A stretch of 64,000 nucleotides of DNA from Candidatus Shapirobacteria bacterium (GTDB taxonomy: Bacteria; Patescibacteriota; Microgenomatia; UBA12405): NCBI GenBank assembly GCA_041661765.1, contig JBAZTV010000002.1, positions 74,212 to 138,211 of the forward strand, given 5' to 3'. Position numbers and translations under genes: made by a program. A model generated the notes under the pieces. The model made no database searches. It saw nothing but the letters and a program-made list of their open reading frames with translations, and was not told where the DNA came from. Below are positions 30,911 to 61,004 of the stretch, piece by piece (within the stretch, counting starts at the first letter, position 1; each line of letters starts with the position of its first letter).

Positions 30911-31509
30911 AAAATTACGATTGGTTCCATTTAATGGAAACATATAAAAACATAGTAAGACCAAATTTTATAGTTCTAGAAATTGGAGCCTCTACTATCG
31001 ATAGAACTAATGAAATAGCAAAATATTGCCAAAAATTAATTGGAGTTGAATATTTAAATGAAAGACTACTTAAAAACCACAATAATATTCACTACCAATT
31101 AGGTGATTGGCAAAAATTAACTAAAGTAATTCCCCAAAACAGTATTGATTTAGCAATTAGTAGTCATACTATAGAACATATACCAAACGATATTAAAGCA
31201 CTAAACAAACTCTATTCGGTCTTAAAACCAAACAGTTATGCAATTTTAAACACCCCAAACAGAAAAAGATTGGTTAGACAGATAATTGAACTATTTACTA
31301 ACGAAAGACAGTTTCCGTATTGGGAACATATTCGTGAATATACTGAAGACGATTTAATTAAATTAATTAAAAAAACTAAATTTAAAGAATATAAAATAAC
31401 TCCAGTTTGTTTTGGTATTCATGGAGGTAATATTAAGTTTTACCTTAAAAAAGTGCCAAAACATTTTAGAAAATTTTCTAATTTTTGGGAAATAGTTTTA
31501 AAAAAATAA
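30907..31509 (+). CDS. Class I SAM-dependent methyltransferase.
   Basis: FIVLEIGASTIDRT (motif I), LAISSHTIEHIPND, LKPNSYAIL. 4-bp overlap with the upstream gene. Confidence 0.7.
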   Translation: MKNYDWFHLMETYKNIVRPNFIVLEIGASTIDRTNEIAKYCQKLIGVEYLNERLLKNHNNIHYQLGDWQKLTKVIPQNSIDLAISSHTIEHIPNDIKALNKLYSVLKPNSYAILNTPNRKRLVRQIIELFTNERQFPYWEHIREYTEDDLIKLIKKTKFKEYKITPVCFGIHGGNIKFYLKKVPKHFRKFSNFWEIVLKK

Positions 31510-38090: not shown

Positions 38091-38091
38091 A

Positions 38092-42922: not shown

Positions 42923-43723
42923 ATGTTTCAACTCGTTTCTGAAATAAAAGCAATTTATAAATGGCGCGAATTACTTTGGCAAATGGTTAGCCGTGAAGTT
43001 AAAGCTCGTTATAAACAATCAATTTTGGGCTATTTTTGGGTAATTCTAAATCCGTTGGCTCAAATGTTAGTTATGTCTTTTGCTTTTTCAATCATCATGC
43101 GTATTCCAACTAATTCTACAGAAAATATTCCTTACTCCATTTTTCTTTTTGTAGCTTTATTACCCTGGACTCTTTTTGCCAATTCCCTCGGATCAGCCGC
43201 AGCCACATTAGTCAGCGCTGGCAGTTTAATAACTAAAATTTATTTTCCTCGCACAATCCTAGTATTAGCCACCATCATTGCTAAAATAATCGATTTTCTT
43301 TTTTCTACCTCAATATTAATTATTTATATGATTATTTATCACATTCCCGTAAATATAAATATTTTATGGATAATTCCAATTTTCTTTATCCAACAAATAT
43401 TCACACTTGGACTTTCTCTATTCTTTGCCGCAGCCAATTTGCTTTATCGCGACATTCAATATCTCTTAAGCTTAATTCTAACTCTTTGGATGTATTTAAC
43501 CCCGATTATTTATCCAGCCGATATTATTCCTGACAAATTTAGATTTTTGTTTCAACTCAATCCAATGTCTGTAATTGTAAACGCTTATCGTCAAGTTCTC
43601 TTAGGGGGAGGAGTCCCTAAATATTCCAGTCTAATTATTGCTTTTATAGTTTCTTTTATCATTCTATTAGTTGGTCTTTCTTATTTTAAATCACGCGAAA
43701 AAATATTCGCCGATAATATTTAA
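42923..43723 (+). CDS. ABC-2 type exporter permease (Wzm/TagG/KpsM-like).
   Basis: YKWRELLWQMVSREVKARYKQSILGYFWVILNPLAQMLVMSFAF. Six TM. Confidence 0.85.
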   Translation: MFQLVSEIKAIYKWRELLWQMVSREVKARYKQSILGYFWVILNPLAQMLVMSFAFSIIMRIPTNSTENIPYSIFLFVALLPWTLFANSLGSAAATLVSAGSLITKIYFPRTILVLATIIAKIIDFLFSTSILIIYMIIYHIPVNINILWIIPIFFIQQIFTLGLSLFFAAANLLYRDIQYLLSLILTLWMYLTPIIYPADIIPDKFRFLFQLNPMSVIVNAYRQVLLGGGVPKYSSLIIAFIVSFIILLVGLSYFKSREKIFADNI

Positions 43724-43727
43724 ATCT

Positions 43728-44165
43728 ATGATTAAATATAAATTTTGGTCAAACTATAAACATTCTTCTTCCGATATTGAATCTATAAATTATCTTTTAA
43801 CTCTTCTCACTCAAAATCCAAATAAAATAACTGCCACACAATTAAACGAAATTTCTAAAAACTCTCATATTCTTTTGGCTCTCGATAAAAACAATAAAAT
43901 TATAGGCATGGCCACTTTGGCTCTAATCAATATTACTGTCGGCAAATCTGGCCGAATTGAAGATGTTGTCGTTGATGATAAATTTAGAGGGCAGGGGATT
44001 GGAACCACTTTAATTAAAAAATTGATTACTAAAGCCAAAAAACTTCATCTTAAAAAGATAGATTTAACCAGTAATCCTAAAAGGATTGAAGCCAATAAAT
44101 TATATCTAAATCTAAATTTCTTCAAATACGAAACTAACGTTTATCGAATGAAATTTGAAAAATAA
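43728..44165 (+). CDS. GNAT-family N-acetyltransferase.
   Basis: ATG at 43728; the track start at 43671 overlaps the upstream gene. VDDKFRGQGIGTTLIKKLI is GNAT motif A. Confidence 0.75.
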   Translation: MIKYKFWSNYKHSSSDIESINYLLTLLTQNPNKITATQLNEISKNSHILLALDKNNKIIGMATLALINITVGKSGRIEDVVVDDKFRGQGIGTTLIKKLITKAKKLHLKKIDLTSNPKRIEANKLYLNLNFFKYETNVYRMKFEK

Positions 44166-44247
44166 CGGTAATATTGATAAAATCGCACTGTTCAAGGTAA
44201 ATAGCCCTTTAAAAAATTGAAGGAAATAACGAAAGGTGTGTGTTTGA

Positions 44248-44871
44248 ATGAAAAAGTTTTTAGCTGGTGTTTTATTTGCAGTAATATTTTGCAGTACTGG
44301 TTTTTTTATAGGAATTCCAAAAGTAATCAACAATAACCCAATATTTAAAATCATTGAGAAAATGATTACCCCAGATCCAGTCAAAGTTGTACCCGACACA
44401 ACAGTTTTAGCTGCAGAAATTCAACAATTAGCAAAAATAGAAACTGCTTCCTTTGTTCTCAAAAACAAAAAATTCTATAGTACTAGAGATAACGACAGAT
44501 TTTGGGGAATTCTTGGTGAAAATTTAGAATTAATCGCTAGTTGCAAAGTTACTGCTGGTATTGATCTTAGCAATATCACTGATGATAATTTTGAAATTCT
44601 TAAAAATCAAACAATAAAAATCAGACTGCCTAAAGCAAAAATTTTCGATGTCATAATCACTGCTTCTAGTGTTCCCAGTAGAACCAAAGGCCTTTTAGCC
44701 ACAGTTGATAAAGATATGGAAAGTAACACTAAAGATTATGCTCAAAATTATTTTTTAGAACAAGCCTTAAATTCAGATTTATTAGATCAAGCCAATCAAA
44801 ACGCCCAAAATAGAATCCAAAATTTAGCCAAAAAACTCAAATTTACGACTGTTGTTTTCACCCAAATATAA
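44248..44871 (+). CDS. Membrane-anchored/exported protein of unknown function (DUF4230-like?).
   Basis: N-terminal TM (FLAGVLFAVIFCSTGFFIG). Preceded by AAAGG 8 nt upstream. The family assignment is tentative. Confidence 0.55.
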   Translation: MKKFLAGVLFAVIFCSTGFFIGIPKVINNNPIFKIIEKMITPDPVKVVPDTTVLAAEIQQLAKIETASFVLKNKKFYSTRDNDRFWGILGENLELIASCKVTAGIDLSNITDDNFEILKNQTIKIRLPKAKIFDVIITASSVPSRTKGLLATVDKDMESNTKDYAQNYFLEQALNSDLLDQANQNAQNRIQNLAKKLKFTTVVFTQI

Positions 44872-44902
44872 AGAACCTTCAATTAATACTTATTTACCAA
44901 CG

Positions 44903-44943
44903 GCATGGAGTTAATTAAGAATTTATTCTTATTACCTCCATGC
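44903..44943 (+). terminator. Nested stem-loop in the largest intergenic gap. 8-bp outer stem GCATGGAG/CTCCATGC enclosing an inner 7-bp stem TAAGAAT/ATTCTTA.
   Basis: Directly visible palindromes, 31 nt downstream of the 44248-44871 stop. There is no U-tract after it, so it could equally be a processing or regulatory structure. Confidence 0.35.
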
Positions 44944-44959
44944 ATACTCATACTCTAAC

Positions 44960-44988
44960 TAGCCATAAACCCCATCTCAATATATAAT
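44960..44988 (+). promoter_or_regulatory. Putative sigma70-like promoter for the NYN-domain gene (TAGCCA - 17 nt - TATATAAT).
   Basis: Extended -10 TATATAAT at 44981-44988 and a weak -35 TAGCCA at 44960-44965. The ATG at 44999 implies a very short leader. Confidence 0.3.
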
Positions 44989-44998
44989 CAATTAATAA

Positions 44999-45544
44999 AT
45001 GAAATCCGGTAATAAAAAGCTTCAAAATTTTAATTCTCAAATTTACGCTTTTATCGATAGTCAAAATCTTAACTTAGGAACTCAATTGAATGGTTGGAAA
45101 CTGGATTTTGGTAAATTTAGAATGTATTTACTTACTAAATTTAAAGTAAAAAAAACATATCTTTTTATTGGTTATATTGAAGGAAATTCAAATTTATATA
45201 GATATTTACAAGAAGTTGGTTATATTTTAATTTTTAAACACGTTTTAGAAATTAAAAAAGATAACAAAACTACAGTTAAGGGTAATGTCGATGCCGAATT
45301 AGTACTACACACTATGATTCAATATCCAAACTATAACCAAGCAATAATTGTTTCAGGAGATGGTGATTTTTATTGTCTTGTAGAATATTTAGAAAAAAAT
45401 AATAAATTAGCAAAAATTATCGTTCCAAATCAAAAGTACTCATCATTATTAAGAAAATATGCAAAATATATTTTCCCATTAAAACCTGCCAAAGAAAAAT
45501 TAGAAATTAAAAAAGAAAAAGAGAGGCATTCCCGCGGGAAATAA
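44999..45544 (+). CDS. NYN-domain protein (LabA-like PIN-fold putative RNase).
   Basis: IYAFIDSQNL...GNVDAELVLHTM...IVSGDGDF matches NYN/LabA catalytic-Asp signatures. Confidence 0.75.
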   Translation: MKSGNKKLQNFNSQIYAFIDSQNLNLGTQLNGWKLDFGKFRMYLLTKFKVKKTYLFIGYIEGNSNLYRYLQEVGYILIFKHVLEIKKDNKTTVKGNVDAELVLHTMIQYPNYNQAIIVSGDGDFYCLVEYLEKNNKLAKIIVPNQKYSSLLRKYAKYIFPLKPAKEKLEIKKEKERHSRGK

Positions 45545-45599: not shown

Positions 45600-46355
45600 A
45601 TGAATAGTCAATCAAAATTTCCAGATCAAATCGTCATTAAATTTGATCACGTCACTAAAAAATTTAGCCAATTAAGCCAAAAAACCTTTAAAGAATTTAT
45701 TCCCGCCTTAATCCGCGGCGAACAAACTACTGAAAGTTTTACTGCCTTAAACAATATAAGTTTCGAAATTGAAAGAGGAGAGACAGTTGGAATTATCGGT
45801 CCCAATGGTAGTGGTAAATCAACCATATTAAAGCTCATTGCCGGTGTTATGTCGCCAAATTCAGGAACGATTACAGTTAAAGGTAAAATTTCTCCCTTAA
45901 TCGAACTTGGTGCTGGTTTCCACCCAGAATTAACCGGAAGTGAAAATATTTATCTCAACGGTGCCATTCTTGGATTAAAACGTAAAGAAATTGATAAAAA
46001 TTTTCAATCGATTGTTGATTTTGCTGAATTACAAGAATTTATAAATCAACCAATTAAACATTATTCTTCCGGCATGTACATGCGTCTCGCCTTTGCAGTT
46101 GCTATTCATGTCCATCCGGAAATTTTAATTGTTGACGAAATTCTCTCTGTCGGCGATCAAGCTTTTCAAGAAAAATGTTTCGCCAAAATGGAAGAATTCA
46201 AAAAATCAAAAGATGTCACCATTATTTTTGTCTCACACAGCCTTGATCAAGTAGAAAAATTTTGCACTCGTGCTTTATATTTAAACGAACACCAAATTCA
46301 ATTCGACGGTAAAGTTAAAAAAGCAATTGAAAAATATGAAAAAACCTCTAATTAG
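45600..46355 (+). CDS. ABC exporter ATP-binding protein (Wzt/TagH/KpsT-like, short form without a C-terminal carbohydrate-binding domain).
   Basis: Walker A GIIGPNGSGKST, signature YSSGMYMRLAFAVA, Walker B ILIVDE, H-loop FVSHS. Confidence 0.9.
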   Translation: MNSQSKFPDQIVIKFDHVTKKFSQLSQKTFKEFIPALIRGEQTTESFTALNNISFEIERGETVGIIGPNGSGKSTILKLIAGVMSPNSGTITVKGKISPLIELGAGFHPELTGSENIYLNGAILGLKRKEIDKNFQSIVDFAELQEFINQPIKHYSSGMYMRLAFAVAIHVHPEILIVDEILSVGDQAFQEKCFAKMEEFKKSKDVTIIFVSHSLDQVEKFCTRALYLNEHQIQFDGKVKKAIEKYEKTSN

Positions 46356-47547
46356 TATTATTTTAATAAGCTACAAAAACTATCGCTATATTTATGAAGC
46401 GTTAGATTCCATTTTGTGCCAAGATTATCTCAACATAGAAATAATTATTAGCAACGACGGTTCAGATGATTTTGATCAAAAAAGTGTTAATCAATATCTA
46501 ACAAAAAACAAAAAACAAAACATAAAAAATTTTATTATTAATAATAATAAAAAAAATATCGGAACGGTCAAAAACGTTAACAAGGCCATAAAATTATCAA
46601 AAGGTAAATATATAACTATATTTGCCGCAGATGACACTCTTTATAATAGTCAGGTTGTCACTAAGTTTATAAACTCGTTCAACACTTTACCAAAAAATGA
46701 ATTAATTGTAACCTCACAAGTCGACATGTACGATGTAAGACTCAAAAAAATTATACAGCCATTTATTTCTGAAACAAATAAAGAAAAAATTAGAAAATTA
46801 ACACCAAAAAAATTATTTGCAGAAATGTCAACACAATGTATTCTCCCTGGTTCTGGCACTTGTTACAAAAGAGAGATTTTTAAAAAATACGGTTATTTCG
46901 ACGAAAAATATGTTTTAGTAGAAGACTATTCTTCTGCATTAAGACTATCCAGGTTAGGTGTTAAGTATAATTATTTTGATTTTATTTCAATTAAACACCG
47001 TGACGGAGGAATTAGTCATGGAAACATTATTGGAGACACTTCAGCTATAAGTAAATATGATTTAGATATTTTTAATATATTCAAATTTGAGGTTTTACCA
47101 TATTTAAATTTATTAAATGAAAGACAAAAAAAAGAATTCATAAAAAAATATAAAGATATTGAATGGAAATATTCATATAACTATAAATATAAAAATGGGA
47201 CAAAGATACAACGAAGAAAGTTCGTTATAGAAAATTTTAATATCATCTCGTATAGTTTTTTCAAAAACATTTTTAATGATATCTCTGATCAAGTCAAAGG
47301 AAAAAAATTTATGTTATTTCTCATTGGATTAATTCTTTTAACTATTTATAGTTTTAATGTTGATTTTGGCTCAAGTTTTTTCTCCATTTTTAGTATAGAA
47401 AAAAACCCAGACTGGTCTAATTCTATAAATAAAACAATAGGTTTCTTAGGCTTATTTATAGTAACTTTAAGTATAACTATGACTATTTTTTTATTTTCTA
47501 AAAAATATGCAATTCAAATATATAAATTTATTAAATTTATATTCTAA
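46336..47547 (+). CDS. Glycosyltransferase family 2 with a C-terminal membrane region.
   Basis: ATG at 46336; the track start at 46327 is TTG. ISIILISYKNYRYIYEALDSILCQ...IEIIISNDGSDD...FAADD. Two or three C-terminal TM. Confidence 0.8.
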   Translation: MKKPLISIILISYKNYRYIYEALDSILCQDYLNIEIIISNDGSDDFDQKSVNQYLTKNKKQNIKNFIINNNKKNIGTVKNVNKAIKLSKGKYITIFAADDTLYNSQVVTKFINSFNTLPKNELIVTSQVDMYDVRLKKIIQPFISETNKEKIRKLTPKKLFAEMSTQCILPGSGTCYKREIFKKYGYFDEKYVLVEDYSSALRLSRLGVKYNYFDFISIKHRDGGISHGNIIGDTSAISKYDLDIFNIFKFEVLPYLNLLNERQKKEFIKKYKDIEWKYSYNYKYKNGTKIQRRKFVIENFNIISYSFFKNIFNDISDQVKGKKFMLFLIGLILLTIYSFNVDFGSSFFSIFSIEKNPDWSNSINKTIGFLGLFIVTLSITMTIFLFSKKYAIQIYKFIKFIF

Positions 47548-47551
47548 TTTA

Positions 47552-49015
47552 ATGATTCTAAAACGAGCAGTTAATAATTTGGTAAAAAAAATTCCTCCAA
47601 TAAAAAAACTCATTATTGAGAAAAACACATTAATTGAAGAAAAGAATAATTTAATTGAAGAAAAGAATAATTTAATTGAAGAAAAGAATAATTTAATTGA
47701 AGAAAAGAATAATTTAATTGAAGAAAAGAATAATTTAAATAATATTAATATTAAATTAATAGAAGAAAAAGAAACATTAAAACACGAACTATTTGAACTT
47801 AATCAAATTAGATATCAAATAGTAATACAAAAACTTCAAAAGAAAATTAAACAAAAACAAAAAATAAATGTCATATTTATAGTTATTCACAGTTCAGTTT
47901 GGCAATATGATGATTTATATAAAAAATACAGTAATGATAAAAAATACAACCCAATAATAATTGTTGCACCATACATTCTTTGTAAAAAGGATGAAATGAT
48001 AGAAGAAATGAATAAAAGTTATTCTTATTTTAAGAATAAAAATTACAGCGTGTTAAAAACGTATAATAAAACAAATCTTTTTTCAGACATAAAAACAGAA
48101 TTACAACCCGATATAATATTTTTTACAAACCCACATAAAATTACAAATGACAAATATTATATTAATAATTTTTACAAAGACACTCTAACTTGTTATGTAC
48201 CTTACGGAATCATGTCTGCCAATATAGAAAAAAACCAATATAACCAAGAATTTCACAATCTAACATGGAAAAACTTTTATGAAACGGAAATACATAAAAA
48301 AATAGCAGAAAAATATGCTGATAACAAAGGAGTGAATGTTTTAGTTACAGGTTACCCAAAATGCGATATTTTTTTAAACAGAAAATATAAAGCAAAAAAT
48401 GTTTGGAAAAAAACTGACAAAAATTTAAAAAAAATAATTTGGGCACCCCATCACACTATTGAAAATAATGAAAAAGAATTAGGATATTCAAATTTTTTAG
48501 AATATCATCAAATAATGTTAGATATCGCCAAAAAATATCAAAATAAAATCCAAATAGCCTTTAAACCACATCCAATTTTATTGACTAAACTCAAAACACA
48601 TCCTGATTGGGGAGAGAGAAAAATCCATGATTATTGCGAAAAATGGAAAAATGAAAAAAACACTCAATTAGAACTTGATGAATACACTGATTTGTTTTTA
48701 TCATCAGACGGTATGATTCTCGATAGTGTTTCATTTATTGCAGAATATATGTTTATAAACAAACCAGCTTTGTTTATGATCAAAGACAATACTATTAACA
48801 ATAAATTTAACATTTTTGGCTCAATTGCTTATAACCTTTTATACAAATCACAAAACAAAAATGATTTAATTAATTTTATTGAAACAGTAATTTTAAAAGA
48901 AAAAGATGAAAGAAAAGAACAACGAGAAAAATTTCTTAATCAATATTTAATACCACCAAATAATCATAATGCTACAGATAATATTTATTCATTTATAAAC
49001 AATTATTTAAAATGA
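47552..49015 (+). CDS. TagB/TagF-like CDP-alcohol phosphotransferase (Glyphos_transf) with an N-terminal coiled coil containing (IEEKNNL)x5.
   Basis: ATG at 47552, clean after the upstream stop at 47547. C-terminal VLVTGYPKCDIFL (cf. GYPRND) and FLSSDGMILDSVSFIAEYMFINKPALF. Confidence 0.7.
   Translation: MILKRAVNNLVKKIPPIKKLIIEKNTLIEEKNNLIEEKNNLIEEKNNLIEEKNNLIEEKNNLNNINIKLIEEKETLKHELFELNQIRYQIVIQKLQKKIKQKQKINVIFIVIHSSVWQYDDLYKKYSNDKKYNPIIIVAPYILCKKDEMIEEMNKSYSYFKNKNYSVLKTYNKTNLFSDIKTELQPDIIFFTNPHKITNDKYYINNFYKDTLTCYVPYGIMSANIEKNQYNQEFHNLTWKNFYETEIHKKIAEKYADNKGVNVLVTGYPKCDIFLNRKYKAKNVWKKTDKNLKKIIWAPHHTIENNEKELGYSNFLEYHQIMLDIAKKYQNKIQIAFKPHPILLTKLKTHPDWGERKIHDYCEKWKNEKNTQLELDEYTDLFLSSDGMILDSVSFIAEYMFINKPALFMIKDNTINNKFNIFGSIAYNLLYKSQNKNDLINFIETVILKEKDERKEQREKFLNQYLIPPNNHNATDNIYSFINNYLK
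47612..47737 (+). repeat. In-frame perfect tandem repeat, 21-bp unit attgaagaaaagaataattta x5 plus a degenerate leading copy. Encodes (IEEKNNL)n.
   Basis: Directly visible. Units at 47633-47653, 47654-47674, 47675-47695, 47696-47716 and 47717-47737 are identical. Confidence 0.95.
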
Positions 49016-49611
49016 CAAAATTCATCTTCGATTTAGACGGAACAGTAACATCACAAGAAACATTACCTTTAATATCAAAGCATTTCAATATATCAAAAGA
49101 AATAAATAAAATAACAAAAGAAACTATCCAAGGTAATATTCCTTTCGTTGAAAGCTTCATAAAACGAGTCCATATTTTAGGGAAACTACCAGTTGATGAA
49201 ATTTGTGAATTACTTGAAAAAACTGAATTGTACCCTCAAATAATTTGTTTTATAAAAAAAAATAAAAAGAATTGTGTAATAGCCACAGGAAATTTAGATT
49301 GTTGGGTTGAAAAACTTGTTAAAAAAATTGGATGCCTTTCATACACTTCCAATGCCAACGTAGAGAATAATCACGTTACTAAAATAACACAAATTATTAA
49401 AAAAGAAGATATTGTTAAACAATATAAAAATTTAGGAGAAAAAGTTGTATTTATTGGCGACGGAAACAATGACATGGAGGCCATGAGACTCGCAGATGTT
49501 TCAATTGCTTGTGGTTTAACTCATAAACCAGCCAAAAGTATACTTACTATAACCGATTATTTAGTTTTTAATGAGGAGGCACTATGTCGACAACTAAATC
49601 AGTTATTATAA
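49012..49611 (+). CDS. HAD-superfamily phosphatase, phosphoserine-phosphatase (SerB)-like.
   Basis: FIFDLDGTVTSQE (motif I DxDGT), IGDGNNDMEAM (motif IV). Confidence 0.75.
   Translation: MTKFIFDLDGTVTSQETLPLISKHFNISKEINKITKETIQGNIPFVESFIKRVHILGKLPVDEICELLEKTELYPQIICFIKKNKKNCVIATGNLDCWVEKLVKKIGCLSYTSNANVENNHVTKITQIIKKEDIVKQYKNLGEKVVFIGDGNNDMEAMRLADVSIACGLTHKPAKSILTITDYLVFNEEALCRQLNQLL
49573..49579 (+). promoter_or_regulatory. Strong Shine-Dalgarno sequence GAGGAGG, 5 nt upstream of the ATG at 49584.
   Basis: aatGAGGAGGcactATG. This is the strongest RBS in the window; it lies inside the 3' end of the HAD gene. Confidence 0.5.
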
Positions 49612-50225
49612 GTTGTGCCGGAATAGGTTCAAGGCTCGGCTTAGGTCAAACTAAAGCTTTAATCGATATTGCTGGAAAATCTCTAATTCGTTGGCAATTA
49701 GAACTATTGGATAGTATAAAAGATATAAGAATTGTTGTTGGATATCAATCTAATGATGTTATTAAAGAAGTTTTAAAAATCAGAAAAGATGCAATTTTTA
49801 TCTACAATCATAATTATTTTGAAACAAAAACAGGTGCTAGTTTTTATTTAGGATCAAAAGACGCAAATGAATATGTTATAGAATGGGATGGTGATTTACT
49901 TGTGCATCCTGAAGATGTTAAAAAATGTTTACAAATGGATCAGGAATATATTGGTTACAGTGACAAAGTTTCTGATGAATCTGTTTATGTTAAAACAAAC
50001 AATGAAGGGGATGTTTTAAGTTTTTCAAGAGAAAACGGTGATTACGAATGGACAGGTCCAGCATGTATTAGAAAGAATAAAGTTAAATATACATCTGGTA
50101 ATGTTTTCAATCAACTTGAAGAATATTTACCAATGAAAGGATTAAAAATACGAGCACAAGATATTGATACTTACGATGACTACAAAAAAGCGATAGAATT
50201 TATTAAAAGTTGGCAAAAAAAATAA
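49584..50225 (+). CDS. LicC-like nucleotidyltransferase (CTP:phospho-alcohol / sugar-phosphate cytidylyltransferase).
   Basis: VIISCAGIGSRLGLGQTKALIDIAGKSLIRWQLELL...RIVVGY parallels LicC AAGLGTRL...PKAL...PLIEYQIEFL...IVGY. Confidence 0.7.
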   Translation: MSTTKSVIISCAGIGSRLGLGQTKALIDIAGKSLIRWQLELLDSIKDIRIVVGYQSNDVIKEVLKIRKDAIFIYNHNYFETKTGASFYLGSKDANEYVIEWDGDLLVHPEDVKKCLQMDQEYIGYSDKVSDESVYVKTNNEGDVLSFSRENGDYEWTGPACIRKNKVKYTSGNVFNQLEEYLPMKGLKIRAQDIDTYDDYKKAIEFIKSWQKK

Positions 50226-50227
50226 TA

Positions 50228-50944
50228 ATGAATGTACTTTTTTTAGATCAATTTAAAAAAAAATATTTCAATTTAATATTGAAATACCCCTTCATTGTAA
50301 ATTATATCGCAAATAAACAATCACAAAACTACTGGATAAACCAAAAAAATTGGCGTGTAAAAGACATTTTTTATAAAAGAGCAATCAAACAAGAACAATT
50401 TCTTAAAAAAAACTTCATTCCCCTCCTTAATAAAAATTCTATTATTTGTGATCTTGCTTGTGCTTGTGGCGATTTTGCTTTTATTGTGGCTCCATTTGTT
50501 AAAAAAATTGAAGGATTCGATTTATCTTCTAAAATGGTTAAATTAGCAAATAAAACGGCAAGAGATAAAAAAATCAACAATACTCATTTTTATGAAGCTA
50601 ATATCAATAACTATTTCTTTAAAAGAAAATATGACCACTTTATGTGTTTAGGTCTTTTTACATATATCTTTAACAATAAAGATGCTAATAATATTATTAA
50701 AAAAATTTCAGATTCTATTAAAATAAACGGTTATTTAGTCATAAAAGACACCTTAACAACAGAAAAAAATAACATAATCCATCTCGTATTTAATGATCCA
50801 TATTCAGCAAATTACAGATCCAAAAAAGAATATCTTAAACTATTTAAAGAAAAAAACTTTTCTTTTATTAAAGAAACAAAACTATCAAAAGGAAACGATG
50901 ATCGTTTTTTTAGTTATTGTGCAATTTTTCAAAAAACAAAATGA
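50228..50944 (+). CDS. Class I SAM-dependent methyltransferase.
   Basis: ATG at 50228; the track start at 50210 is TTG. ICDLACACGDFAFIV (motif I), EGFDLSSKMV, INGYLVIKD. Confidence 0.65.
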   Translation: MNVLFLDQFKKKYFNLILKYPFIVNYIANKQSQNYWINQKNWRVKDIFYKRAIKQEQFLKKNFIPLLNKNSIICDLACACGDFAFIVAPFVKKIEGFDLSSKMVKLANKTARDKKINNTHFYEANINNYFFKRKYDHFMCLGLFTYIFNNKDANNIIKKISDSIKINGYLVIKDTLTTEKNNIIHLVFNDPYSANYRSKKEYLKLFKEKNFSFIKETKLSKGNDDRFFSYCAIFQKTK

Positions 50945-51657
50945 AAAAAAATGAAGTTATAGGAATAATTGGTGGAGCAGGTGTTGCAGCCACTAATAAA
51001 TTAAATGAACTTATTGAAAATATTTTTACTCTAAATGGCGCCTTTAGAGACATGCATCATCCTGAAATTATTATTTATCAAGCCACAAAAGCACCTTCAA
51101 GAAGTATGTATCTTGAAGGCAAAGGGGAATCATTTATTAGTGATTACATTAAAATTGGTAAAAAACTTAAAAGTGCGGGTGCTACAACTCTTTGTATGAG
51201 TTGCAACACAGCTCATTATGCTATAGACGAAATTCAAAATGAAGTTGGTTTGCCTTTTATCAATCTAATTGAAGAGGTTGTTTCCGAAATTAAAAACACA
51301 AATCAAAAAAAAATTGGACTAATTGCTTCAGATGGATGTTTAATGGGTAAGGTTTACGAAAAATATTTTGATAAAATTTATCCTGAAGCTAAAATCATTT
51401 ACCCAGACAAAATTTTTCAGCAAGAAGTAACTAGGGGAATTTGCAATATTAAAAATATCAACAGGTTTAAAGAAGACTCCAGTCTAGACAGACCAAAAAA
51501 TATTTTTACCAATGTGAGTAAACATCTAATTAAAAAAAATGCCGACATAATTTTAATCGGATGTACTGATATAAGAGTAGATTATTTTAATCAAAACTCT
51601 GTTGATTCATTAGAAGTTTTAGCAAAAAAAATTTATCAAAAAACATATGAAAAATAA
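50941..51657 (+). CDS. Asp/Glu/hydantoin-racemase-family enzyme (aspartate-racemase-like).
   Basis: VIGIIGGAGVAAT, GKGE, MSCNTAHYAIDEIQ and IILIGCTDI match the two catalytic-Cys motifs (CNTAH / GCTE) of aspartate racemases. Confidence 0.75.
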   Translation: MKKNEVIGIIGGAGVAATNKLNELIENIFTLNGAFRDMHHPEIIIYQATKAPSRSMYLEGKGESFISDYIKIGKKLKSAGATTLCMSCNTAHYAIDEIQNEVGLPFINLIEEVVSEIKNTNQKKIGLIASDGCLMGKVYEKYFDKIYPEAKIIYPDKIFQQEVTRGICNIKNINRFKEDSSLDRPKNIFTNVSKHLIKKNADIILIGCTDIRVDYFNQNSVDSLEVLAKKIYQKTYEK

Positions 51658-52285
51658 CGATGCTTTAATTTTTTTTAAAAATATGTCAAAAAACAAATCG
51701 CTTAACCCCAATTCACTTAAATTGGCAAAAAATAGTGATTTTTCTACAATCGATGCTAAATTTATTTTAAGTCACACAAATAAAAATACAAAAATTCTCG
51801 ATCTAGGAAGTGGAAGTGGTCTTGTTATTAATAAAATTAATGACAAAGTAAAACATATTTTAGCTGTTGAACCTTTTGTTGAATTTACAAAATATATAAA
51901 CACAAACACTAATATTACTATTATAAATAAAGATATCTTAAATTTTAAAACGAACGAACTTTTTGACTTGGTTACAATGTTCGCTGTTGTTCAATATTTT
52001 AATCAAGACGAAATCGTAAAAATTTACACCAAATACAAAAATAATTTAAAAACCAATGGCAAATTAATAATAAAAGGCCAATTTGGAGTAGAGGATGATG
52101 TCATAATTTCTGGTTATTCAGATGAACTAAAAACTAATTATTATTCACAATATCGTCACTTAAATAAAGAAATCGATATTTTAAGAAAAATAGGATATAA
52201 AAATATCGAAGTAGTAGATATATATCCACCAGAGTGCAATCGTTGGAAGAATACCCATTTCTATGCAATAATTGCAGAAAAATAG
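51647..52285 (+). CDS. Class I SAM-dependent methyltransferase.
   Basis: ILDLGSGSGLVINKI (motif I), ILAVEPF, GKLIIKG. Confidence 0.7.
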   Translation: MKNNDALIFFKNMSKNKSLNPNSLKLAKNSDFSTIDAKFILSHTNKNTKILDLGSGSGLVINKINDKVKHILAVEPFVEFTKYINTNTNITIINKDILNFKTNELFDLVTMFAVVQYFNQDEIVKIYTKYKNNLKTNGKLIIKGQFGVEDDVIISGYSDELKTNYYSQYRHLNKEIDILRKIGYKNIEVVDIYPPECNRWKNTHFYAIIAEK

Positions 52286-52304: not shown

Positions 52305-53402
52305 ATGATCAAATTTCTAGATCTTTATAAAATAAACCAACAATACAGAAAAGAAATAAATAAAGCCATTAATCAAGTTTTAGACTCCGGCTATTATATT
52401 TTAGGTCAAGAAGTTAAAAACTTTGAAACAAATTTTGCTAATTGTATTGGAACAAAATATTGTATTGGCACCGCCAATGGACTAGAAGCGCTCACATTAA
52501 TTTTAATGGCCTATAAGGAATTAAATATCCTAAAAGATAATGATGAAATAATTGTTCCAGCCAATACTTTTATAGCCTCAATTTTAGCTATCTCTCAAAA
52601 TAATCTAACTCCAGTTTTGGTCGAACCAGATATAAATACATACAATATTAATCCTGATCTTATTGAAGAAAAAATAACCAAAAAAACAAAAGCTATTATG
52701 ATAGTCCACTTATATGGCCAAACTGTAGAAATGGACAAAATTTGGAAATTAGCCAAAAAATATAATTTAAAAATTATAGAAGATTCGGCACAAGCTCATG
52801 GATCAAAATATAAAAATAAAATGGTCGGAAACCTTGGTGATGCTTCTGGTTTTAGTTTCTATCCGGGAAAAAATTTAGGAGCCATTGGAGATGCTGGCGC
52901 AATTACAACCAATGATAAAAAATTAGCCGACACAATTAGGGCAATTGCTAATTATGGTTCTTCTGAAAAATATGTGAACATTTATAAAGGAATAAACAGT
53001 CGACTCGACGAAATTCAAGCTGCAATTCTTAATATAAAACTTAAATATTTGGATTCCGATAATAATAAAAGACGCATTGTTGCTAAATATTATTTGGACA
53101 ATATTAAAAATCAGAAAATAACTTTACCAAATATAACCGATTTCAATGAGCATAATTTTTACGTCTTTGTAATCAGAACAAAAAATAGAAATCAATTGCA
53201 AAAATATTTAGAAAATAATGGAATTGGATCCTTAATTCATTATCCAATTCCACCCCATAAACAACAAGCATATAAAGAATGGAATAAATTAAATTTACCA
53301 ATTACAGAGCAAATTCACAATGAAATTCTAAGCATCCCCATTAGTCCAGTTTTGACCCAAAATGAAGTGAAAAAAATCGTAAAAGTCTTAAACAATTTTT
53401 AA
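52305..53402 (+). CDS. DegT/DnrJ/EryC1/StrS-family PLP-dependent sugar aminotransferase (FdtB/QdtB-like).
   Basis: [62 protein letters not shown]...[10 protein letters not shown]. Confidence 0.85.
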
Positions 53403-53405: not shown

Positions 53406-53858
53406 TTATTTTTGTTTTGCAGGATTACCAACAACTATCAAACCAGGTAAAACATCTACAACAACTACACTTCCAGCTCCTACCATAGAACCTTCACCGA
53501 TAGTTACTCCAGGTAAAATAGTAGCATTTGCACCAATTGAAGCACCCTTTTTAATTAAAATCCTTTCTTTTTTCCAATTTTTGTTTCCAGACTTTGGATA
53601 TCTATCATTACAAAAAGTCACATTTGGTCCAACAAAAACATCATCTTCAATTGTAATCCCATCCCAAATTTGAACCCCAGATTTAATAGTTACATTATTC
53701 CCAATTACAACTTCATTCTCAATAAAACAATGCGAACAAATATTACAATCATTACCTATTTTTGCATCAGGTAATACAACACAAAATTGCCAAATTCTTG
53801 TACGCTCACCAATTTTTTTACTATCAACAATTGCAGTAGGGTGAATATAAATATCCAT
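53406..53858 (-). CDS. Left-handed beta-helix (hexapeptide-repeat) sugar N-acetyltransferase (FdtC/QdtC/WxcM-N-like).
   Basis: Repeating [LIV]G-x4 hexapeptides: [67 protein letters not shown]. Confidence 0.8.
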
Positions 53859-53860: not shown

Positions 53861-54265
53861 TTATTTTATTAATTCTTCAAAAAATGTATCATCGGGAGAC
53901 CATTCAGTGTCAGTATAATTTAATAGTGAAGCTTTTTTACTTAAATTTCTAAAAGAATGAGCTATATTTGGACCAATCTCCAATCTTGTATATTTATCTG
54001 ATTTACTATCTATAATAATTCTAACTATTTCACCAGTTTTCATATCTTTCAAAACTACTTCTACTTTTCCAGTTACCAATCCAAACCATTCTCTCCATTT
54101 TTTATGATAATGATTACCTCTAACGACATTGGACTTACCAAAAGTAACAAAATATATCTGCCCAAATTCCTTAAATTCTTTTTTTAAATCTGAATCTCTT
54201 AAAAAGACTACTAAATGACCTCTTTTGTCATCATGTTTTTCAATAAAATCAATTTTATAATCCAT
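53861..54265 (-). CDS. FdtA/WxcM-C-like cupin: dTDP-4-keto-6-deoxyhexose 3,4-ketoisomerase.
   Basis: ATG at 54265 (MDYKIDF); the track start at 54331 is further upstream and probably non-[13 protein letters not shown]...[28 protein letters not shown] matches the FdtA RG..H.HKK pattern. Confidence 0.75.
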
Positions 54266-54314
54266 AACACTTCCATTATAGCAATAATGATAAAATTCAT
54301 AAACAAATAGACAT

Positions 54315-55880
54315 ATGAAAAAGAAAATCATCTCTTTCCTAAATAAATACTGGATTTTACTGTCATTTTTATCAATTTTTACAATCTACATACTACCGGT
54401 TTGTTTTCAAAACAACAATAATTTAAACCTAGTTTCCGCTGAACATATTGATAGTGGTTCTATCCTCGGCAGTATCATGCAAATGAATAGCAAAAATACA
54501 CCAAACTCTTTTTATAATCAAAATATTCCATACCACACCGGCTTTTATGGCTACCCCTACAATAGTATTGTATTTTGGAGCTTCAAATTCGAAAAAATAT
54601 TTTTCAGATCATATGCCAACATTAATTTTTATATTTTTCCATTAATTGCAAAATTATTAAATTTTATTTTTGCTTCATTTTCAATAATATATCTGTATCA
54701 ACTATCAAGAAAAATCCTAAAATATAATCTATCAAGAATTTTATTACTTTCGCTTTTCATAATTTTCCCCGAATATCTTCATTACGTTTTTCATATTAAG
54801 CCAGATATTTTAGGTTTATTATTTTCAATAATATCCCTAAATTACTTATATGATTATTTACAAAATTCTAAAAATAATAAAAATATAATTAAAGCCAATG
54901 TTTTTGGCGGACTATCTATTTTGTGCAAACAACCACACATATTTATAATTTTCCCTTTATTAATAGGGTTCGTTTCTTCTTTAAAAGGTAACCTAAAAGA
55001 AAAACTTTCCATTTTTTTTAAAACATATTTATACTCTGGAATAATTTTTCTATTTTTATTTTTTATTATTCACCCCTATGCCTTCCTGGAACTAAAAGCA
55101 TTTTTAGCAAGACAAATATTGATGACAAGTATGACATCCGCCAGTTATATCGATAATATTAACTTTTGGTTGCCAACATTTATCGGGGATCCATTACTCT
55201 TTATCTTTGTATTCACTCCATTTATTTTTATATTATTAAATTTATTTAAAAAGTTTCGCAATAAAACAACACTATTTTTGTTATTAATTTCAACATATAT
55301 TATTAGTTATCTTTTATGGTTAACCCTAAAAGTTGGCCCAATGCGATTTATTCATTACTTAATTCCGGTTTTTCCTTTTTCAATTTTAATTTTTTCTTAC
55401 ATTTTTGACTTTTTTTTCAATAAAACATTTTGCTCAAAATCTAAAATCAACCAAATATTTTATCTAACTATTTTTATAACGGTTTTTTTATTATCAGTAA
55501 AAACCATCAACTATACAATTATTAAAACCAAAAATATTATACAATCGCCCTATGATTTTCAAAAAACAGAAACATACAAAGCCACCAAAAAGTTTGAAAA
55601 AGAATTCAGTAATGAGCAATTAAATAAAAAAACAATAATTTACTCGATATCCTTACCAGTAAACGATACCCTATATGAAAATTCTATCAACACTTGGCAG
55701 GTTAATGAAAAAGTTGTTAATGAATTAAAACCGGAATATCTTTTCATTGATTTCACTGTTTATTGGGAAAAACCATATGAATATTGGGAAAAAATTGCTA
55801 AACAAAACGAATTGAACAAAGAAATGTTGTTTATAGACAATTTTGATAAAGAAAAAAATATAGTTCTTTTCTACAAATAA
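54315..55880 (+). CDS. Polytopic membrane protein, possibly a distant family B member (GFYGYPYN motif).
   Basis: 521 aa with 12+ TM. AEHIDSGSILGSIMQMN...NIPYHTGFYGYPYN echoes HDDM...GQIP...GFGYGYPLF. Divergent from 53861-54265, with only 49 bp between them. Confidence 0.6.
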   Translation: MKKKIISFLNKYWILLSFLSIFTIYILPVCFQNNNNLNLVSAEHIDSGSILGSIMQMNSKNTPNSFYNQNIPYHTGFYGYPYNSIVFWSFKFEKIFFRSYANINFYIFPLIAKLLNFIFASFSIIYLYQLSRKILKYNLSRILLLSLFIIFPEYLHYVFHIKPDILGLLFSIISLNYLYDYLQNSKNNKNIIKANVFGGLSILCKQPHIFIIFPLLIGFVSSLKGNLKEKLSIFFKTYLYSGIIFLFLFFIIHPYAFLELKAFLARQILMTSMTSASYIDNINFWLPTFIGDPLLFIFVFTPFIFILLNLFKKFRNKTTLFLLLISTYIISYLLWLTLKVGPMRFIHYLIPVFPFSILIFSYIFDFFFNKTFCSKSKINQIFYLTIFITVFLLSVKTINYTIIKTKNIIQSPYDFQKTETYKATKKFEKEFSNEQLNKKTIIYSISLPVNDTLYENSINTWQVNEKVVNELKPEYLFIDFTVYWEKPYEYWEKIAKQNELNKEMLFIDNFDKEKNIVLFYK

Positions 55881-55920: not shown

Positions 55921-57189
55921 TTATATTTTAGGATTTATCGTTATATTTTTTAAAAAACCATTTAAAACTCTTTTTATATAATCCATCCTTTCTTTATTAA
56001 TTCCTGGCCAAACACCCAACCAAAAAGCATTATTCATAATAATATCCGACTCTTTCATTTCTCCAACGATCCTAAAATTATCTCTAATTTTTATATAAGC
56101 TGGATGACGAAGCAAATTTCCTGCAAAAACATTTCTTGTTCCTATTTTATTTTTTTCTAAATATTCAGTTAATTCATTCCTTGTAAATGGAGCATCTTTT
56201 TTTACTACTAATGGAAACCCAAAAGGGGACAAGTCCACTTTTTCATCCTCTCTCATCAGGGTAAAATATTTTTCATATTTATTAAAAAAATTATATAAAA
56301 TCTTATAGTTCTCTTGTCTTTTCTTAATAAATTTTGGCAATTTTTTTAATTGAGCCAATCCAATTGCTGCCTGAAAATCAGTTAATTTTAAATTATATCC
56401 TACCTCAGAATAAATATATTTATGGTCGTAACCATAAGGTAATTCTCCTAACTGCCATTTAAATCGATTTTTACAAGAATCATCTTTGCCAGTTCCACAC
56501 CAACAATCTCTACCCCAATCCCTAAAACGTCTAATTGATTTATTAATTAATGGATCGTTGGTAATAATCGCTCCACCTTCACCCATGGTAATATGATGAG
56601 CTGGATAAAAACTAAAAGTTGCAATATGACCAAAAGTACCTAAAATTTTACCATCATACTTTGACCCTAAAGCGTCACAACAGTCTTCAATTAACCACAA
56701 ATCATATTTTTTAACCAACTTCATAATTTCTGTAAGATCAAAAGGTTTTCCTAAAGTATGAGCAATCATTATTAATTTAGTTTTATTGGTTATTGCCGCT
56801 TCAATTTTCTTTGGGTCAATATTAAGAGTGTCTGCCTCGGCATCAATAAACACCGGTTTCAAACCATGCTGAATTCCCGGATTTACAGTTGTTGGAAAAG
56901 ATACAGGAGTAGTTATAAATTCATCTCCTACTTTAAGCCTCTTCTCACCAAAAATATCTGATGTCAGCGCCGCTAATGCTACTAAATTTGCCGAAGATCC
57001 AGAATTAACTAATGATACAAATTTAATTCCTAAATATTTTTTAAACTCTTCTTCAAATTTTAAAGCGAATTCTCCCTCTGTCCACCAACCATCTTTCGCT
57101 ACTTTTATAGCATTATTAATTTCTTCCTTATCAAAAACTTTACCAGAAACTGGTATATAACTTTCACCTGGTGTAAATTTTTTATTCAT
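55921..57189 (-). CDS. RfbH/DdhC(E1)/ColD-like PLP/PMP-dependent NDP-4-keto-6-deoxyhexose 3-dehydrase.
   Basis: GKVFDKEEINNAIKVAKDGWWTEGEFALKFEEEFKKYLGIKFVSLVNSGSSANLVALAAL matches the RfbH N-terminal region closely. 422 aa. Confidence 0.8.
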   Translation of the reverse strand: MNKKFTPGESYIPVSGKVFDKEEINNAIKVAKDGWWTEGEFALKFEEEFKKYLGIKFVSLVNSGSSANLVALAALTSDIFGEKRLKVGDEFITTPVSFPTTVNPGIQHGLKPVFIDAEADTLNIDPKKIEAAITNKTKLIMIAHTLGKPFDLTEIMKLVKKYDLWLIEDCCDALGSKYDGKILGTFGHIATFSFYPAHHITMGEGGAIITNDPLINKSIRRFRDWGRDCWCGTGKDDSCKNRFKWQLGELPYGYDHKYIYSEVGYNLKLTDFQAAIGLAQLKKLPKFIKKRQENYKILYNFFNKYEKYFTLMREDEKVDLSPFGFPLVVKKDAPFTRNELTEYLEKNKIGTRNVFAGNLLRHPAYIKIRDNFRIVGEMKESDIIMNNAFWLGVWPGINKERMDYIKRVLNGFLKNITINPKI

Positions 57190-57199
57190 AAAATTAATT

Positions 57200-59024: not shown

Positions 59025-59071
59025 CTACTGAGTATATCAAAATAAAATATCTTGTTATAATAATCCTACCA

Positions 59072-60983: not shown

Positions 60984-61004
60984 TTAATAATTTAATAAAA
61001 ATTT

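Follow-up and report, generated by a model that had tools for sequence, protein, structure and literature searches.

What does a block of five genes directly behind a TagF-like transferase gene attach to the glycans of a Candidatus Shapirobacteria bacterium, a member of the candidate phyla radiation (CPR)? The block lies at 49012-52285 of a 64,000-nucleotide stretch of DNA (contig JBAZTV010000002.1, assembly GCA_041661765.1), which was analysed as a whole and is hereafter called the window. A preliminary description, made from the DNA letters, had proposed a pathway that decorates a surface polymer with a methylated phospho-amino-alcohol or with a D-amino-acid-containing group. Our analysis makes it fairly probable that the five genes form a module for glycan decoration with phosphodiester-linked amino acids, of the type encoded by ftaABCD in Clostridioides difficile and by PA1088-PA1091 in Pseudomonas aeruginosa, with a built-in racemase and a second methyltransferase. 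The proposal is well supported that an amino acid linked to cytidine diphosphate (CDP) would be made by a HAD enzyme and a cytidylyltransferase, methylated in its CDP-linked form and moved to a sugar by the TagF-like enzyme.

Five open reading frames (ORFs) on the + strand were confirmed within 49012-52285, encoding a HAD-IB enzyme, a cytidylyltransferase, a methyltransferase (MT1), a racemase and another methyltransferase (MT2). They directly follow the TagF-like gene (47552-49015), and all are co-directional with it. The five genes were present where the preliminary description had placed them, and the Pfam and NCBIfam assignments agree with it, although two starts had to be amended. The racemase start was reassigned to the ATG at 50941, giving a 238-amino-acid (aa) product that has an exact match in public assemblies; the 246-aa version (TTG at 50917) has no exact match there. 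MT1 is called from the ATG at 50228, not from 50210. The TagF-like and HAD genes overlap by 4 nt and the HAD and cytidylyltransferase genes by 28 nt; a gap of 2 nt separates the cytidylyltransferase gene from MT1, which overlaps the racemase gene by 4 nt, and the racemase gene overlaps MT2 by 11 nt. The view of the block as one operon, in which the TagF-like transferase receives a CDP-activated small-molecule donor from a LicC-type cytidylyltransferase, was upheld. In this AT-rich DNA (window GC content of ~28%), promoter and terminator scans yielded sites no more frequently than in shuffled sequence; no + strand terminator-like site was seen between 45600 and 53402 in a scan that did not exceed chance. 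An Rfam scan of the window gave no match.

Two systems of this kind have been characterised, and both use threonine. The Type A flagellin glycan of C. difficile consists of GlcNAc, a phosphodiester and N-methyl-L-threonine, and is made by cd0240-cd0244 (PMC10714395). In the model for this pathway, FtaA forms phosphothreonine, FtaB forms CDP-threonine, FtaC carries out the N-methylation, and FtaD transfers phospho-N-methylthreonine to the sugar. FtaC methylates CDP-Thr, and FtaD is a TagF-like phosphotransferase (10.64898/2026.02.12.704994). CDP-threonine has so far been detected in C. difficile alone. In P. aeruginosa, mutants of PA1088-1091 lose Rha-P-N,N-dimethylthreonine (10.1101/2024.09.23.614423). 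This closest known system had been overlooked in the preliminary description: the HAD enzyme and the cytidylyltransferase of the window are homologues of PA1089 and PA1090, which belong to a pathway that attaches an intact N-methyl- or N,N-dimethyl-threonine. When plasmid records were searched with the window cytidylyltransferase (tblastn), one P. aeruginosa replicon was matched (L020), with the arrangement flgL, methyltransferase, HAD, NTP transferase, a 1694-aa CDP-glycerol glycerophosphotransferase family protein and B-type fliC. It is the PA1088-PA1091 cluster of the b-type flagellin.

The FtaA/PA1089-type HAD-IB enzyme (49012..49611, + strand) is SerB/ThrH-like. It passed the HAD-IB model TIGR01488 (69 bits; cut-off 45), scored 79.5 bits with the SerB equivalog model TIGR00338, below the cut-off of 144.15, and reached only 21 bits with the ThrH model. 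In blastp comparisons it is 38% identical to PA1089 over 198 aa with one gap (152 bits), and 28% identical to the phosphoserine phosphatase (PSP) of Methanocaldococcus jannaschii (67 bits). Equivalents of the PSP residues D11, D13, E20, F49, R56, K144, D167 and D171 are retained in all members of this family. The catalytic DxD motif is retained in all 14 aligned cassette HADs, and so are the equivalents of E20 and R56, through which PSP contacts the amino and carboxylate groups of its phosphoserine; this is consistent with the binding of an amino-acid phosphate. The predicted role is the synthesis of O-phospho-threonine, with phosphoserine as the proposed phosphoryl donor. FtaA has been proposed to be a ThrH-like phosphoserine:threonine phosphotransferase and not a phosphatase (PMC10714395). 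We infer that the window enzyme may likewise be a phosphoserine-dependent phosphotransferase, a hypothesis taken from the literature with which the conserved phosphoserine-binding residues are compatible.

The FtaB/PA1090-type cytidylyltransferase (49584..50225, + strand) has the LicC/PntC fold. It matches NTP_transf_3 (PF12804) with 32.8 bits, and its sole sequence match in the PDB is LicC (1jyk; E = 2.9e-7, 34 bits). It is 35% identical to PA1090 over 208 aa (118 bits, blastp). The structure model (pLDDT 92.3) has its best fold matches in PntC (6pd1; E = 6e-15), LicC (1jyk; E = 5e-12) and the inositol-phosphate cytidylyltransferases (IPCT), and neither IspD nor MobA is among the best 50 fold matches. 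The reaction predicted for the enzyme is the conversion of cytidine triphosphate (CTP) and a phospho-amino acid into a CDP-amino acid and pyrophosphate. It probably forms a complex with the HAD enzyme; the overlap of the two genes, 28 nt in the window, is 25 nt in P. aeruginosa.

The TagF-like protein (47552..49015, + strand) is a CDP-alcohol-type phosphotransferase with a GT-B fold and the putative analogue of FtaD. The protein itself (487/502 aa) has no Pfam match, and most of its homologues at 45-67% identity, among the matches listed, carry PF04464. Its NCBI name is CDP-glycerol glycerophosphotransferase. The only PDB match of the family profile is TarL (8va1; E = 8.7e-8). The AlphaFold model (pLDDT 93.1) has the GT-B fold and matches UDP-GlcNAc 2-epimerases (E ~1e-12), TagF (3l7k; 5e-10) and TarL (7e-10); the earlier TagF-like label is thus borne out by the PF04464 homologues, the TarL profile match and the model. 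CD0244/FtaD likewise resembles both TagF and UDP-GlcNAc 2-epimerase (PMC10714395). The motifs KPHP and DS.SF..EY are invariant in the family. The enzyme is predicted to take the phospho-amino acid off its CDP donor and attach it to a hydroxyl group of a sugar. The 5′ part of its gene contains a perfect 21-nt tandem repeat (47630..47738, + strand; 5.2 copies, 100% matches, TRF score 218), which is in frame and encodes (LIEEKNN)n, an N-terminal coiled-coil repeat. The same repeat sequence is found in two other public contigs of the organism where they cover it. It could be a coiled-coil spacer or a segment of variable copy number.

MT2 (51647..52285, + strand; PF13649, 6e-9) is a class I S-adenosylmethionine (SAM) methyltransferase and the usual methyltransferase of these cassettes. 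Its family is coherent (40-65% identity), occurs in cassettes with and without the racemase, and is fused C-terminally to the cytidylyltransferase or to a HAD-cytidylyltransferase protein in P0364, P0424, P0389, P0394 and others. We predict that MT2 is a CDP-amino-acid N-methyltransferase, the functional analogue of FtaC and PA1088. In sister cassettes of Chitinophagaceae, its place is taken by a PA1088-type methyltransferase (37-38% identity to PA1088). MT1 (50228..50944, + strand; PF13847, 4e-13) is an accessory class I SAM methyltransferase. It is missing from most cassettes, and its only clear relative in those surveyed is a 272-aa methyltransferase in a Helicobacter locus (L022; 27% identity over 191 aa). 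It probably performs a second methylation, for which the simplest guess is a second N-methylation as in P. aeruginosa. The preliminary description had suggested that the two methyltransferases could act on a phosphoethanolamine-type head group, as in the phosphoethanolamine methyltransferase (PEAMT) route; N-methylation of the head group stands as the most likely role, and the phosphoethanolamine part is not supported. Separately, an MT2-like methyltransferase (36% identity) is encoded on plasmid pYGD36 of Bacillus thuringiensis (L030; NZ_CP019232.1, 10889-11533). Its gene adjoins those of a 5′-nucleotidase-domain protein, a transporter of the major facilitator superfamily and a nonribosomal peptide synthetase; this locus has no HAD or cytidylyltransferase gene and is not a cassette. 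The plasmid enzyme may be related and use a different nucleotide-linked substrate.

Thirteen genome loci were gathered through homologues of the cytidylyltransferase and seven metagenome loci through the racemase; the homology searches with the cytidylyltransferase, the TagF-like protein and the racemase were evaluated for the best 120 matches each. The same gene order is found in at least 15 independent loci of CPR bacteria, Bacteroidota, Campylobacterota, Bacillota, Desulfobacterota and Cyanobacteria-related lineages, and all examined cassette loci sit in glycan clusters. Because the order recurs in this way and the domains also occur fused, the arrangement in the window is not due to chance. 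The HAD-cytidylyltransferase pair is constant across the 13 loci, is fused in L014, L016 and L018 as well as in L026 and many cluster representatives, and is always accompanied by a phosphotransferase of the CDP-X type. The partner is LicD in L008-L010 and L014-L017 (Dysgonomonas, Chitinophagaceae and several Bacteroidales among them) and a TagF-like protein in the window, L006, L012, L021 and L023 (including Anaeromicropila and Vampirovibrio). Among the best 150 cluster representatives, we found HAD-cytidylyltransferase, HAD-cytidylyltransferase-MT2 and cytidylyltransferase-MT2 fusions, a cytidylyltransferase-racemase fusion (P0371; NTP_transf_3 and Asp_Glu_race) and a HAD-cytidylyltransferase-racemase fusion (P0379). 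These fusion proteins tie all enzyme types of the finding into one pathway, and their domain order mirrors the reaction order of FtaA, FtaB and FtaC. The analysis directly establishes which genes are present and in what order, the homology to PA1089 and PA1090, the folds of the modelled proteins, that the synteny is conserved and that the domains occur fused.

The cassette is found in distant taxa. Relatives of the cytidylyltransferase that are 60-85% identical across phyla come, among the matches listed, from Bacteroidales, Spirochaetia, Planctomycetales, a Methanomassiliicoccaceae archaeon, Dysgonomonas termitidis and Anaeromicropila herbilytica. A search of 1.8 billion cluster representatives gave 752 clusters of this family at E ≤ 1e-3, of which 76 reached E ≤ 1e-30. 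Between a CPR bacterium, Bacteroidota, Desulfobacterota, Pseudothauera nasutitermitis (Betaproteobacteria), Vampirovibrio and a Methanomassiliicoccaceae archaeon, the HAD-cytidylyltransferase core (P0099; L007-L019) shows 60-72% identity, and many of the sources are termite or animal guts. Such similarity across distant taxa, with so many gut sources, suggests recent horizontal spread of the cassette, as judged from the sequences. In a neighbour-joining tree of the cytidylyltransferases, racemase cassettes clustered only partially and the window stood beside the Pseudothauera locus, which lacks the racemase; the tree was not used as evidence.

In Campylobacter lari (L021; GCA_014977085.1, AAWQBD010000001.1 58127-78840), a complete racemase cassette lies inside a lipooligosaccharide (LOS) locus bounded by heptosyltransferase and lipid A acyltransferase genes. 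Its order is TagF-like, HAD, cytidylyltransferase, racemase, MT2, GT2 and DegT, and it adjoins RmlA, RmlB and FdtA genes. The order in Helicobacter is HAD, cytidylyltransferase, methyltransferase, radical SAM, racemase and MT2. The small radical SAM protein (~261-266 aa, 43% identical) occurs in the cassettes of Anaeromicropila herbilytica (L006, 8577-9377) and Helicobacter sp. MIT 21-1697 (L022, 2074-2859). The window has no such gene, and the protein suggests that the head group has additional chemical variants. An unexplained 'aspartate racemase' has been noted in the LOS locus of Campylobacter fetus (PMC4943207), and an unexplained 'phosphoserine phosphatase' together with a methyltransferase and a hypothetical protein in LOS class XII of Campylobacter coli (10.1101/050328).

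The component that sets the window apart from the two characterised systems is the racemase (50941..51657, + strand), a two-cysteine racemase/epimerase that is independent of pyridoxal phosphate (PF01177, 8e-20). It passed the amino acid racemase model TIGR00035 (120.3 bits; cut-off 93.1). Its best curated match is the cysteate racemase CuyB (NF052483), with 137.3 bits, below the cut-off of 190. It aligns with the aspartate racemase of Pyrococcus horikoshii (1jfl; 1e-31), including Cys82 and Cys194. The catalytic cysteines in CNTAH and GCTD, to which the preliminary description had pointed, are both present and do not vary among 11 family members. An Arg (PSR motif) and a Lys, which bind anionic groups in the P. 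horikoshii enzyme, are kept, and the family has insertions of its own (TNKL and NIKN.NRF...). The enzyme is predicted to invert the C-alpha of an activated or phosphorylated amino acid. Homologues with 56-86% identity were found, among the matches listed, in Bacteroidales, Salinivirgaceae, Holosporaceae, C. lari, C. volucris, a Helicobacter species and Anaeromicropila.

The racemase is a dedicated component of the cassette. In the metagenome loci found with the racemase as a query, MT2 lies directly 3′ of it in seven of seven, and the cytidylyltransferase directly 5′ in all six that extend upstream; the remaining contig (L025) begins at the racemase. The racemase also stands directly 5′ of MT2 in C. 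lari, Helicobacter and Anaeromicropila. The cytidylyltransferase gene is directly 5′ of the racemase gene in C. lari and Anaeromicropila, and in Helicobacter a methyltransferase gene and the radical SAM gene lie between them. The racemase is present in about two of the 13 loci found through the cytidylyltransferase and therefore marks a subset of the cassettes. Its genomic dedication and its fusion to the cytidylyltransferase imply a substrate different from those of aspartate racemase and CuyB. Racemase-bearing and racemase-free cassettes resemble each other in their HAD, cytidylyltransferase and MT2 proteins (~50-72% identity) as closely as members of either group resemble one another. Because of this equal similarity, and because of the order of genes and domains, the racemase appears to act after the cytidylyltransferase step. 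In racemase cassettes, the transferase is TagF-like and of the same type as in the window, or else a short, divergent form of LicD; in racemase-free cassettes, it is a canonical LicD or another PF04464 protein. Since the type of transferase thus differs with the presence of the racemase, the transferase appears to be stereoselective. The main text and supplements of the 2026 Fta preprint (10.64898/2026.02.12.704994), as far as they were accessible, do not mention a racemase, and literature searches returned no described phospho-threonine or D-allo-threonine structure on lipopolysaccharide (LPS) or LOS. A tblastn search of plasmids with the racemase gave only ~30%-identical Priestia racemases and no cassette. 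The earlier statement that the combination with such a racemase is not a described decoration route holds within the literature searched. The suggestion, drawn from the SerB-like HAD and the racemase, of an amino-acid-derived, possibly D-configured substituent was upheld as well.

From these components, we propose the following pathway. The SerB/ThrH-like HAD enzyme would form an O-phospho-hydroxy-amino acid, most likely O-phospho-L-threonine, with phosphoserine as the donor. The LicC/PntC-like cytidylyltransferase would then use CTP to produce the CDP-amino acid. The two-cysteine racemase would invert the C-alpha (L-Thr to D-allo-Thr), most likely on the CDP-linked or phosphorylated form, and MT2, together with MT1, would N-methylate the CDP-amino acid with SAM. 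The TagF-like GT-B enzyme would place the phospho-(N-methyl)amino acid on a sugar hydroxyl with release of cytidine monophosphate. The acceptor glycan would be built by the neighbouring GT2 enzyme, possibly containing a 3-amino-3,6-dideoxyhexose, and a Wzm/Wzt transporter would export it. The identity of the amino acid, its D configuration, the substrate of the racemase, the order of racemase and methyltransferase, the role of MT1 and the acceptor are those parts of the scheme that we infer from the cassettes and the known systems.

Several points weigh against this pathway. The clade is assigned by homology, folds, synteny and fusions, and its identity to the Pseudomonas enzymes is no more than ~35-38%; serine, homoserine or some other amino acid could therefore take the place of threonine. 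Even for the known system, reconstitution in vitro was confined to the FtaC and FtaD steps, and FtaA and FtaB were not purified (10.64898/2026.02.12.704994). MT2 and the TagF-like protein were set beside FtaC and FtaD through the published descriptions of those enzymes. The scores of MT2 and MT1 with PA1088 are marginal (26-41 bits; 26 bits for MT2), and the TagF-like profile matches the N-terminal phosphotransferase domain of FgtA weakly (hhalign probability 17%, E = 0.0015). MT2 is alike in cassettes with and without the racemase, so racemisation could follow methylation or concern another substrate. The setting is not flagellar, so the acceptor does not follow from the known systems. Finally, CPR bacteria are metabolically reduced, and their supply of phosphoserine and threonine has to be explained.

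A further step, which we put forward tentatively and with slightly less than even confidence, is that the racemase represents an unrecognised epimerase whose substrate is an amino acid in nucleotide-activated or phosphorylated form, converting, for instance, CDP-L-threonine into CDP-D-allo-threonine, and giving rise to phosphodiester-linked N-methyl-D-amino acids on the glycans of many lineages. If true, these lineages would be CPR bacteria, Bacteroidales, Campylobacter lari, C. fetus and C. coli (in their LOS), Helicobacter, Clostridia and possibly Methanomassiliicoccales. It would also mean that a mobile cassette has spread a class of glycan decoration not known before, and that a D-amino acid occurs as a nucleotide-activated metabolite, which would likewise be new.

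The same CDP-amino-acid logic would hold if the substrate were a hydroxy amino acid other than threonine, be it serine or, for example, homoserine, with phospho-(N-methyl)-D-serine as the resulting decoration. We consider this variant unlikely. It draws on the retention of every SerB-type phosphoserine-binding residue in the HAD enzyme, on the 35-38% identity, which is low, to the threonine-specific Pseudomonas enzymes, and on the racemase, for which the closest curated models are those of enzymes for small acidic amino acids (cysteate racemase, 137 bits; Asp racemase). The conserved phosphoserine site is, however, equally explained by phosphoserine as the phosphoryl donor. Threonine is the most likely amino acid in our analysis, because both characterised homologous systems use it and because O-phosphoserine and O-phosphohomoserine are central metabolites that need no dedicated HAD, yet nearly every cassette has a HAD, in many cases fused to the cytidylyltransferase.

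The amino-alcohol reading of the preliminary description fared less well. A Lic-like pathway of this kind would supply a methylated amino-alcohol or phosphonate in CDP-activated form (phosphocholine, N-methyl-phosphoethanolamine or aminoethylphosphonate), with PEAMT-like methyltransferases and a HAD phosphatase that supplies serine. The fold of the cytidylyltransferase is nearest to PntC and LicC, which act on aminoethylphosphonate and phosphocholine, respectively, many relatives are paired with LicD, and JGI labels relatives as 'choline kinase'. Pfam scans, which covered all 58 ORFs of at least 120 aa across the 64-kb window, and the related cassettes contained no choline or ethanolamine kinase, serine or phosphoserine decarboxylase, phosphoenolpyruvate (PEP) mutase, phosphonopyruvate decarboxylase or choline transporter; the choline kinase LicA and LicD (PF04991), for which a check had been suggested, and the transporter LicB had no match among these ORFs of the window. 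An achiral route also offers no substrate to the racemase, yet racemase-cytidylyltransferase fusions exist, and the direct homology is to PA1089 and PA1090. We therefore regard an amino-alcohol or phosphonate head group as very unlikely. The teichoic acid setting was not confirmed either: the context is a glycan island with ABC transporter and Wzx genes in a CPR bacterium.

It is still less probable that the block provides CDP-2-glycerol or another CDP-polyol, as do Gtp1-3 and WchX in pneumococci, with the HAD enzyme as a polyol phosphotransferase and the racemase and methyltransferases serving an unrelated modification. The TagF family, to which the upstream transferase belongs, normally uses CDP-glycerol or CDP-ribitol, and CDP-2-glycerol pathways comprise three dedicated genes and a phosphotransferase (PMC1391919). 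Pfam scans found no Gtp1-type reductase in the window, the residues that bind the amino-acid moiety are retained in the HAD enzyme, and the racemase and the methyltransferase are fused to the cytidylyltransferase in relatives; the homology to PA1089 and PA1090 is strong, and the Gtp family was considered from the literature only. The idea was dropped after this homology had been found. Housekeeping genes assembled by chance (SerB, an IspD/MobA-type enzyme, rRNA/tRNA methylases and an aspartate racemase for cell-wall D-Asp), to which weak Pfam matches to IspD, RrnaAD and GidB might point, are effectively refuted, because the SerB model score is below its cut-off, the IspD match spans the N-terminal nucleotide loop only, PntC and LicC are the best fold matches, and the order recurs in at least 15 loci and as fusions, in which the methyltransferases travel with the cytidylyltransferase.

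We return to the preferred reading, decoration with a phosphodiester-linked amino acid, and to the surroundings in which it would operate. As a whole, the window encodes glycan biosynthesis: it contains a Wzx-like flippase, a Wzm/Wzt transporter, more than 15 GT2 or GT1 genes and genes for unusual sugars. No flagellar genes were detected among the 58 scanned ORFs, and the cassette is a non-flagellar use of the same chemistry, as in the Campylobacter LOS loci. Directly upstream of the TagF-like gene lies a GT2 glycosyltransferase gene (46327..47547, + strand; PF00535, 1.1e-19), whose product has a C-terminal membrane segment. From its position, which is that of FgtA/CD0240, it is a candidate for the addition of the acceptor sugar. 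A Wzm-like ABC-2 permease (42923-43723, + strand; PF01061, 1.5e-18) and a Wzt/TagH-like ATPase (45600-46355, + strand; PF00005; TagH NCBIfam model 2e-77, below its cut-off) are the likely export route of the decorated glycan. The genes for this permease and ATPase, which are normally adjacent, are separated by GNAT, DUF4230 and NYN-domain genes (43671-45544).

Downstream of MT2 lies a gene for a DegT-family sugar aminotransferase (52305..53402, + strand; PF01041, 3e-109), which is 64% identical to the DegT of C. lari (L021), 55% to that of Helicobacter (L022) and 51% to that of Anaeromicropila (L006), and was probably co-transferred with the cassette. Convergent to it are genes for a hexapeptide acetyltransferase (53406-53858; Hexapep match) and an FdtA-like isomerase (53861-54331; FdtA match), and FdtA-like isomerase and acyltransferase genes recur near cassettes elsewhere. 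This co-occurrence suggests a 3-acetamido-3,6-dideoxyhexose as a possible acceptor sugar.

Other features of the window were noted in passing. The regions 1648-3372, 12014-25816, 39005-40783 and 54315-55880 encode some nine multi-pass membrane proteins (~520-590 aa) that are paralogous and match PMT_2, PMT or PTPS_related (GT-C-like) weakly; one of them has a TPR tail, and a 521-aa membrane protein with no Pfam match lies among these regions. For a single island, such a density of putative lipid-linked-sugar transferases is unusual. An RfbH-like DegT gene (55921-57189, minus strand), GT2 and epimerase genes, an acylating acetaldehyde dehydrogenase gene (59006-59962), a DmpG/HMGL-like aldolase gene (59937-60983) and a gene for a thiamine pyrophosphate-dependent enzyme (61005-62780) follow one another; the region 55921-62780 looks like the supply of a two-carbon branch for a deoxysugar of the yersiniose type, which would be odd for a CPR genome. 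Two pairs of radical SAM and class I methyltransferase genes (29411-31509 and 36576-38970) lie among glycosyltransferase genes. One of the two radical SAM enzymes carries a B12-binding domain, and the pairs may serve C-methylation of sugars or another radical modification. A CofD-family protein (40814-41800, minus strand; PF01933, 5e-37) at the edge of the transporter block is probably YvcK-like; no further F420-related genes were seen in the window.

CDP-activated amino acids were shown to be cellular metabolites as late as 2026, and this only in work on the flagellin glycans of a single pathogen; P. aeruginosa offers a genetic parallel. The cassettes described here show that the two-enzyme core, with ~60-85% identity across phyla, is widespread and not confined to flagellar loci. 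It also lies in LPS, LOS and capsule islands and in the glycan islands of CPR bacteria, and its partner transferase is either LicD or TagF-like. A sizeable subset has a dedicated racemase, sometimes fused to the cytidylyltransferase, which predicts D-configured phospho-amino-acid surface epitopes and a new enzyme activity. The cassettes also offer a functional hypothesis for the unexplained Campylobacter LOS genes, namely the 'aspartate racemase' of C. fetus and the 'phosphoserine phosphatase' of C. coli class XII. These LOS loci are relevant to serotyping, phage and immune recognition, and vaccine design.

The window cassette shares with PA1088-PA1091 of P. aeruginosa full-length homologues of the HAD enzyme and the cytidylyltransferase, the overlap of their genes, a class I methyltransferase and a TagF-like phosphotransferase. 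In clear contrast to the window, the P. aeruginosa cluster has no racemase and a single methyltransferase of a subtype other than MT1 and MT2, its phosphotransferase is fused to a glycosyltransferase (FgtA, 1694 aa), and it belongs to the flagellar regulon beside fliC. With fgtA and ftaABCD of C. difficile 630, the window has in common a glycosyltransferase, a PSP/ThrH-like HAD, a LicC-like NTP transferase, a small class I methyltransferase and a TagF-like transferase, and, by comparison with the published descriptions, the predicted logic of a CDP-amino-acid donor that is methylated while CDP-linked. The C. difficile system has no racemase, an L-amino acid product and a single methyltransferase, and its target is the O-GlcNAc of flagellin; its transferase gene comes last, whereas that of the window comes first.

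Individual enzymes also have relatives in other pathways. The cytidylyltransferase fold, the transfer of a small CDP- or CMP-activated head group onto glycans and the LicD of many sister cassettes recall the Lic and PntC pathways. Unlike these, the window has no kinase, choline transporter, phosphonate genes or LicD, the phospho-donor step is assigned to the HAD enzyme, and the head group, a predicted amino acid, would keep its alpha-carboxylate. The upstream protein shares the GT-B fold, PF04464 homologues and a conserved HP-containing motif with TagF, TarL and TarF, but there is no adjacent TagD or TarIJ, the protein falls below Pfam thresholds, and it is predicted to add a single phospho-amino acid and not to polymerise. 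The racemase belongs to the fold family of P. horikoshii 1jfl and CuyB, with two catalytic cysteines in CNTAH and GCT(D/E) motifs. It differs from them in its score below the CuyB cut-off, its own insertions and its linkage or fusion to the cytidylyltransferase. With ThrH, the phosphoserine:homoserine phosphotransferase of P. aeruginosa, and with SerB, the HAD enzyme shares the HAD-IB type, the DxD nucleophile and the phosphoserine-binding Glu and Arg; unlike them, it is always paired with a cytidylyltransferase. The core of the cassette is thus a member of the FtaAB/PA1089-1090 kind, and its integrated racemase, its second methyltransferase and its polysaccharide/LOS context are new.

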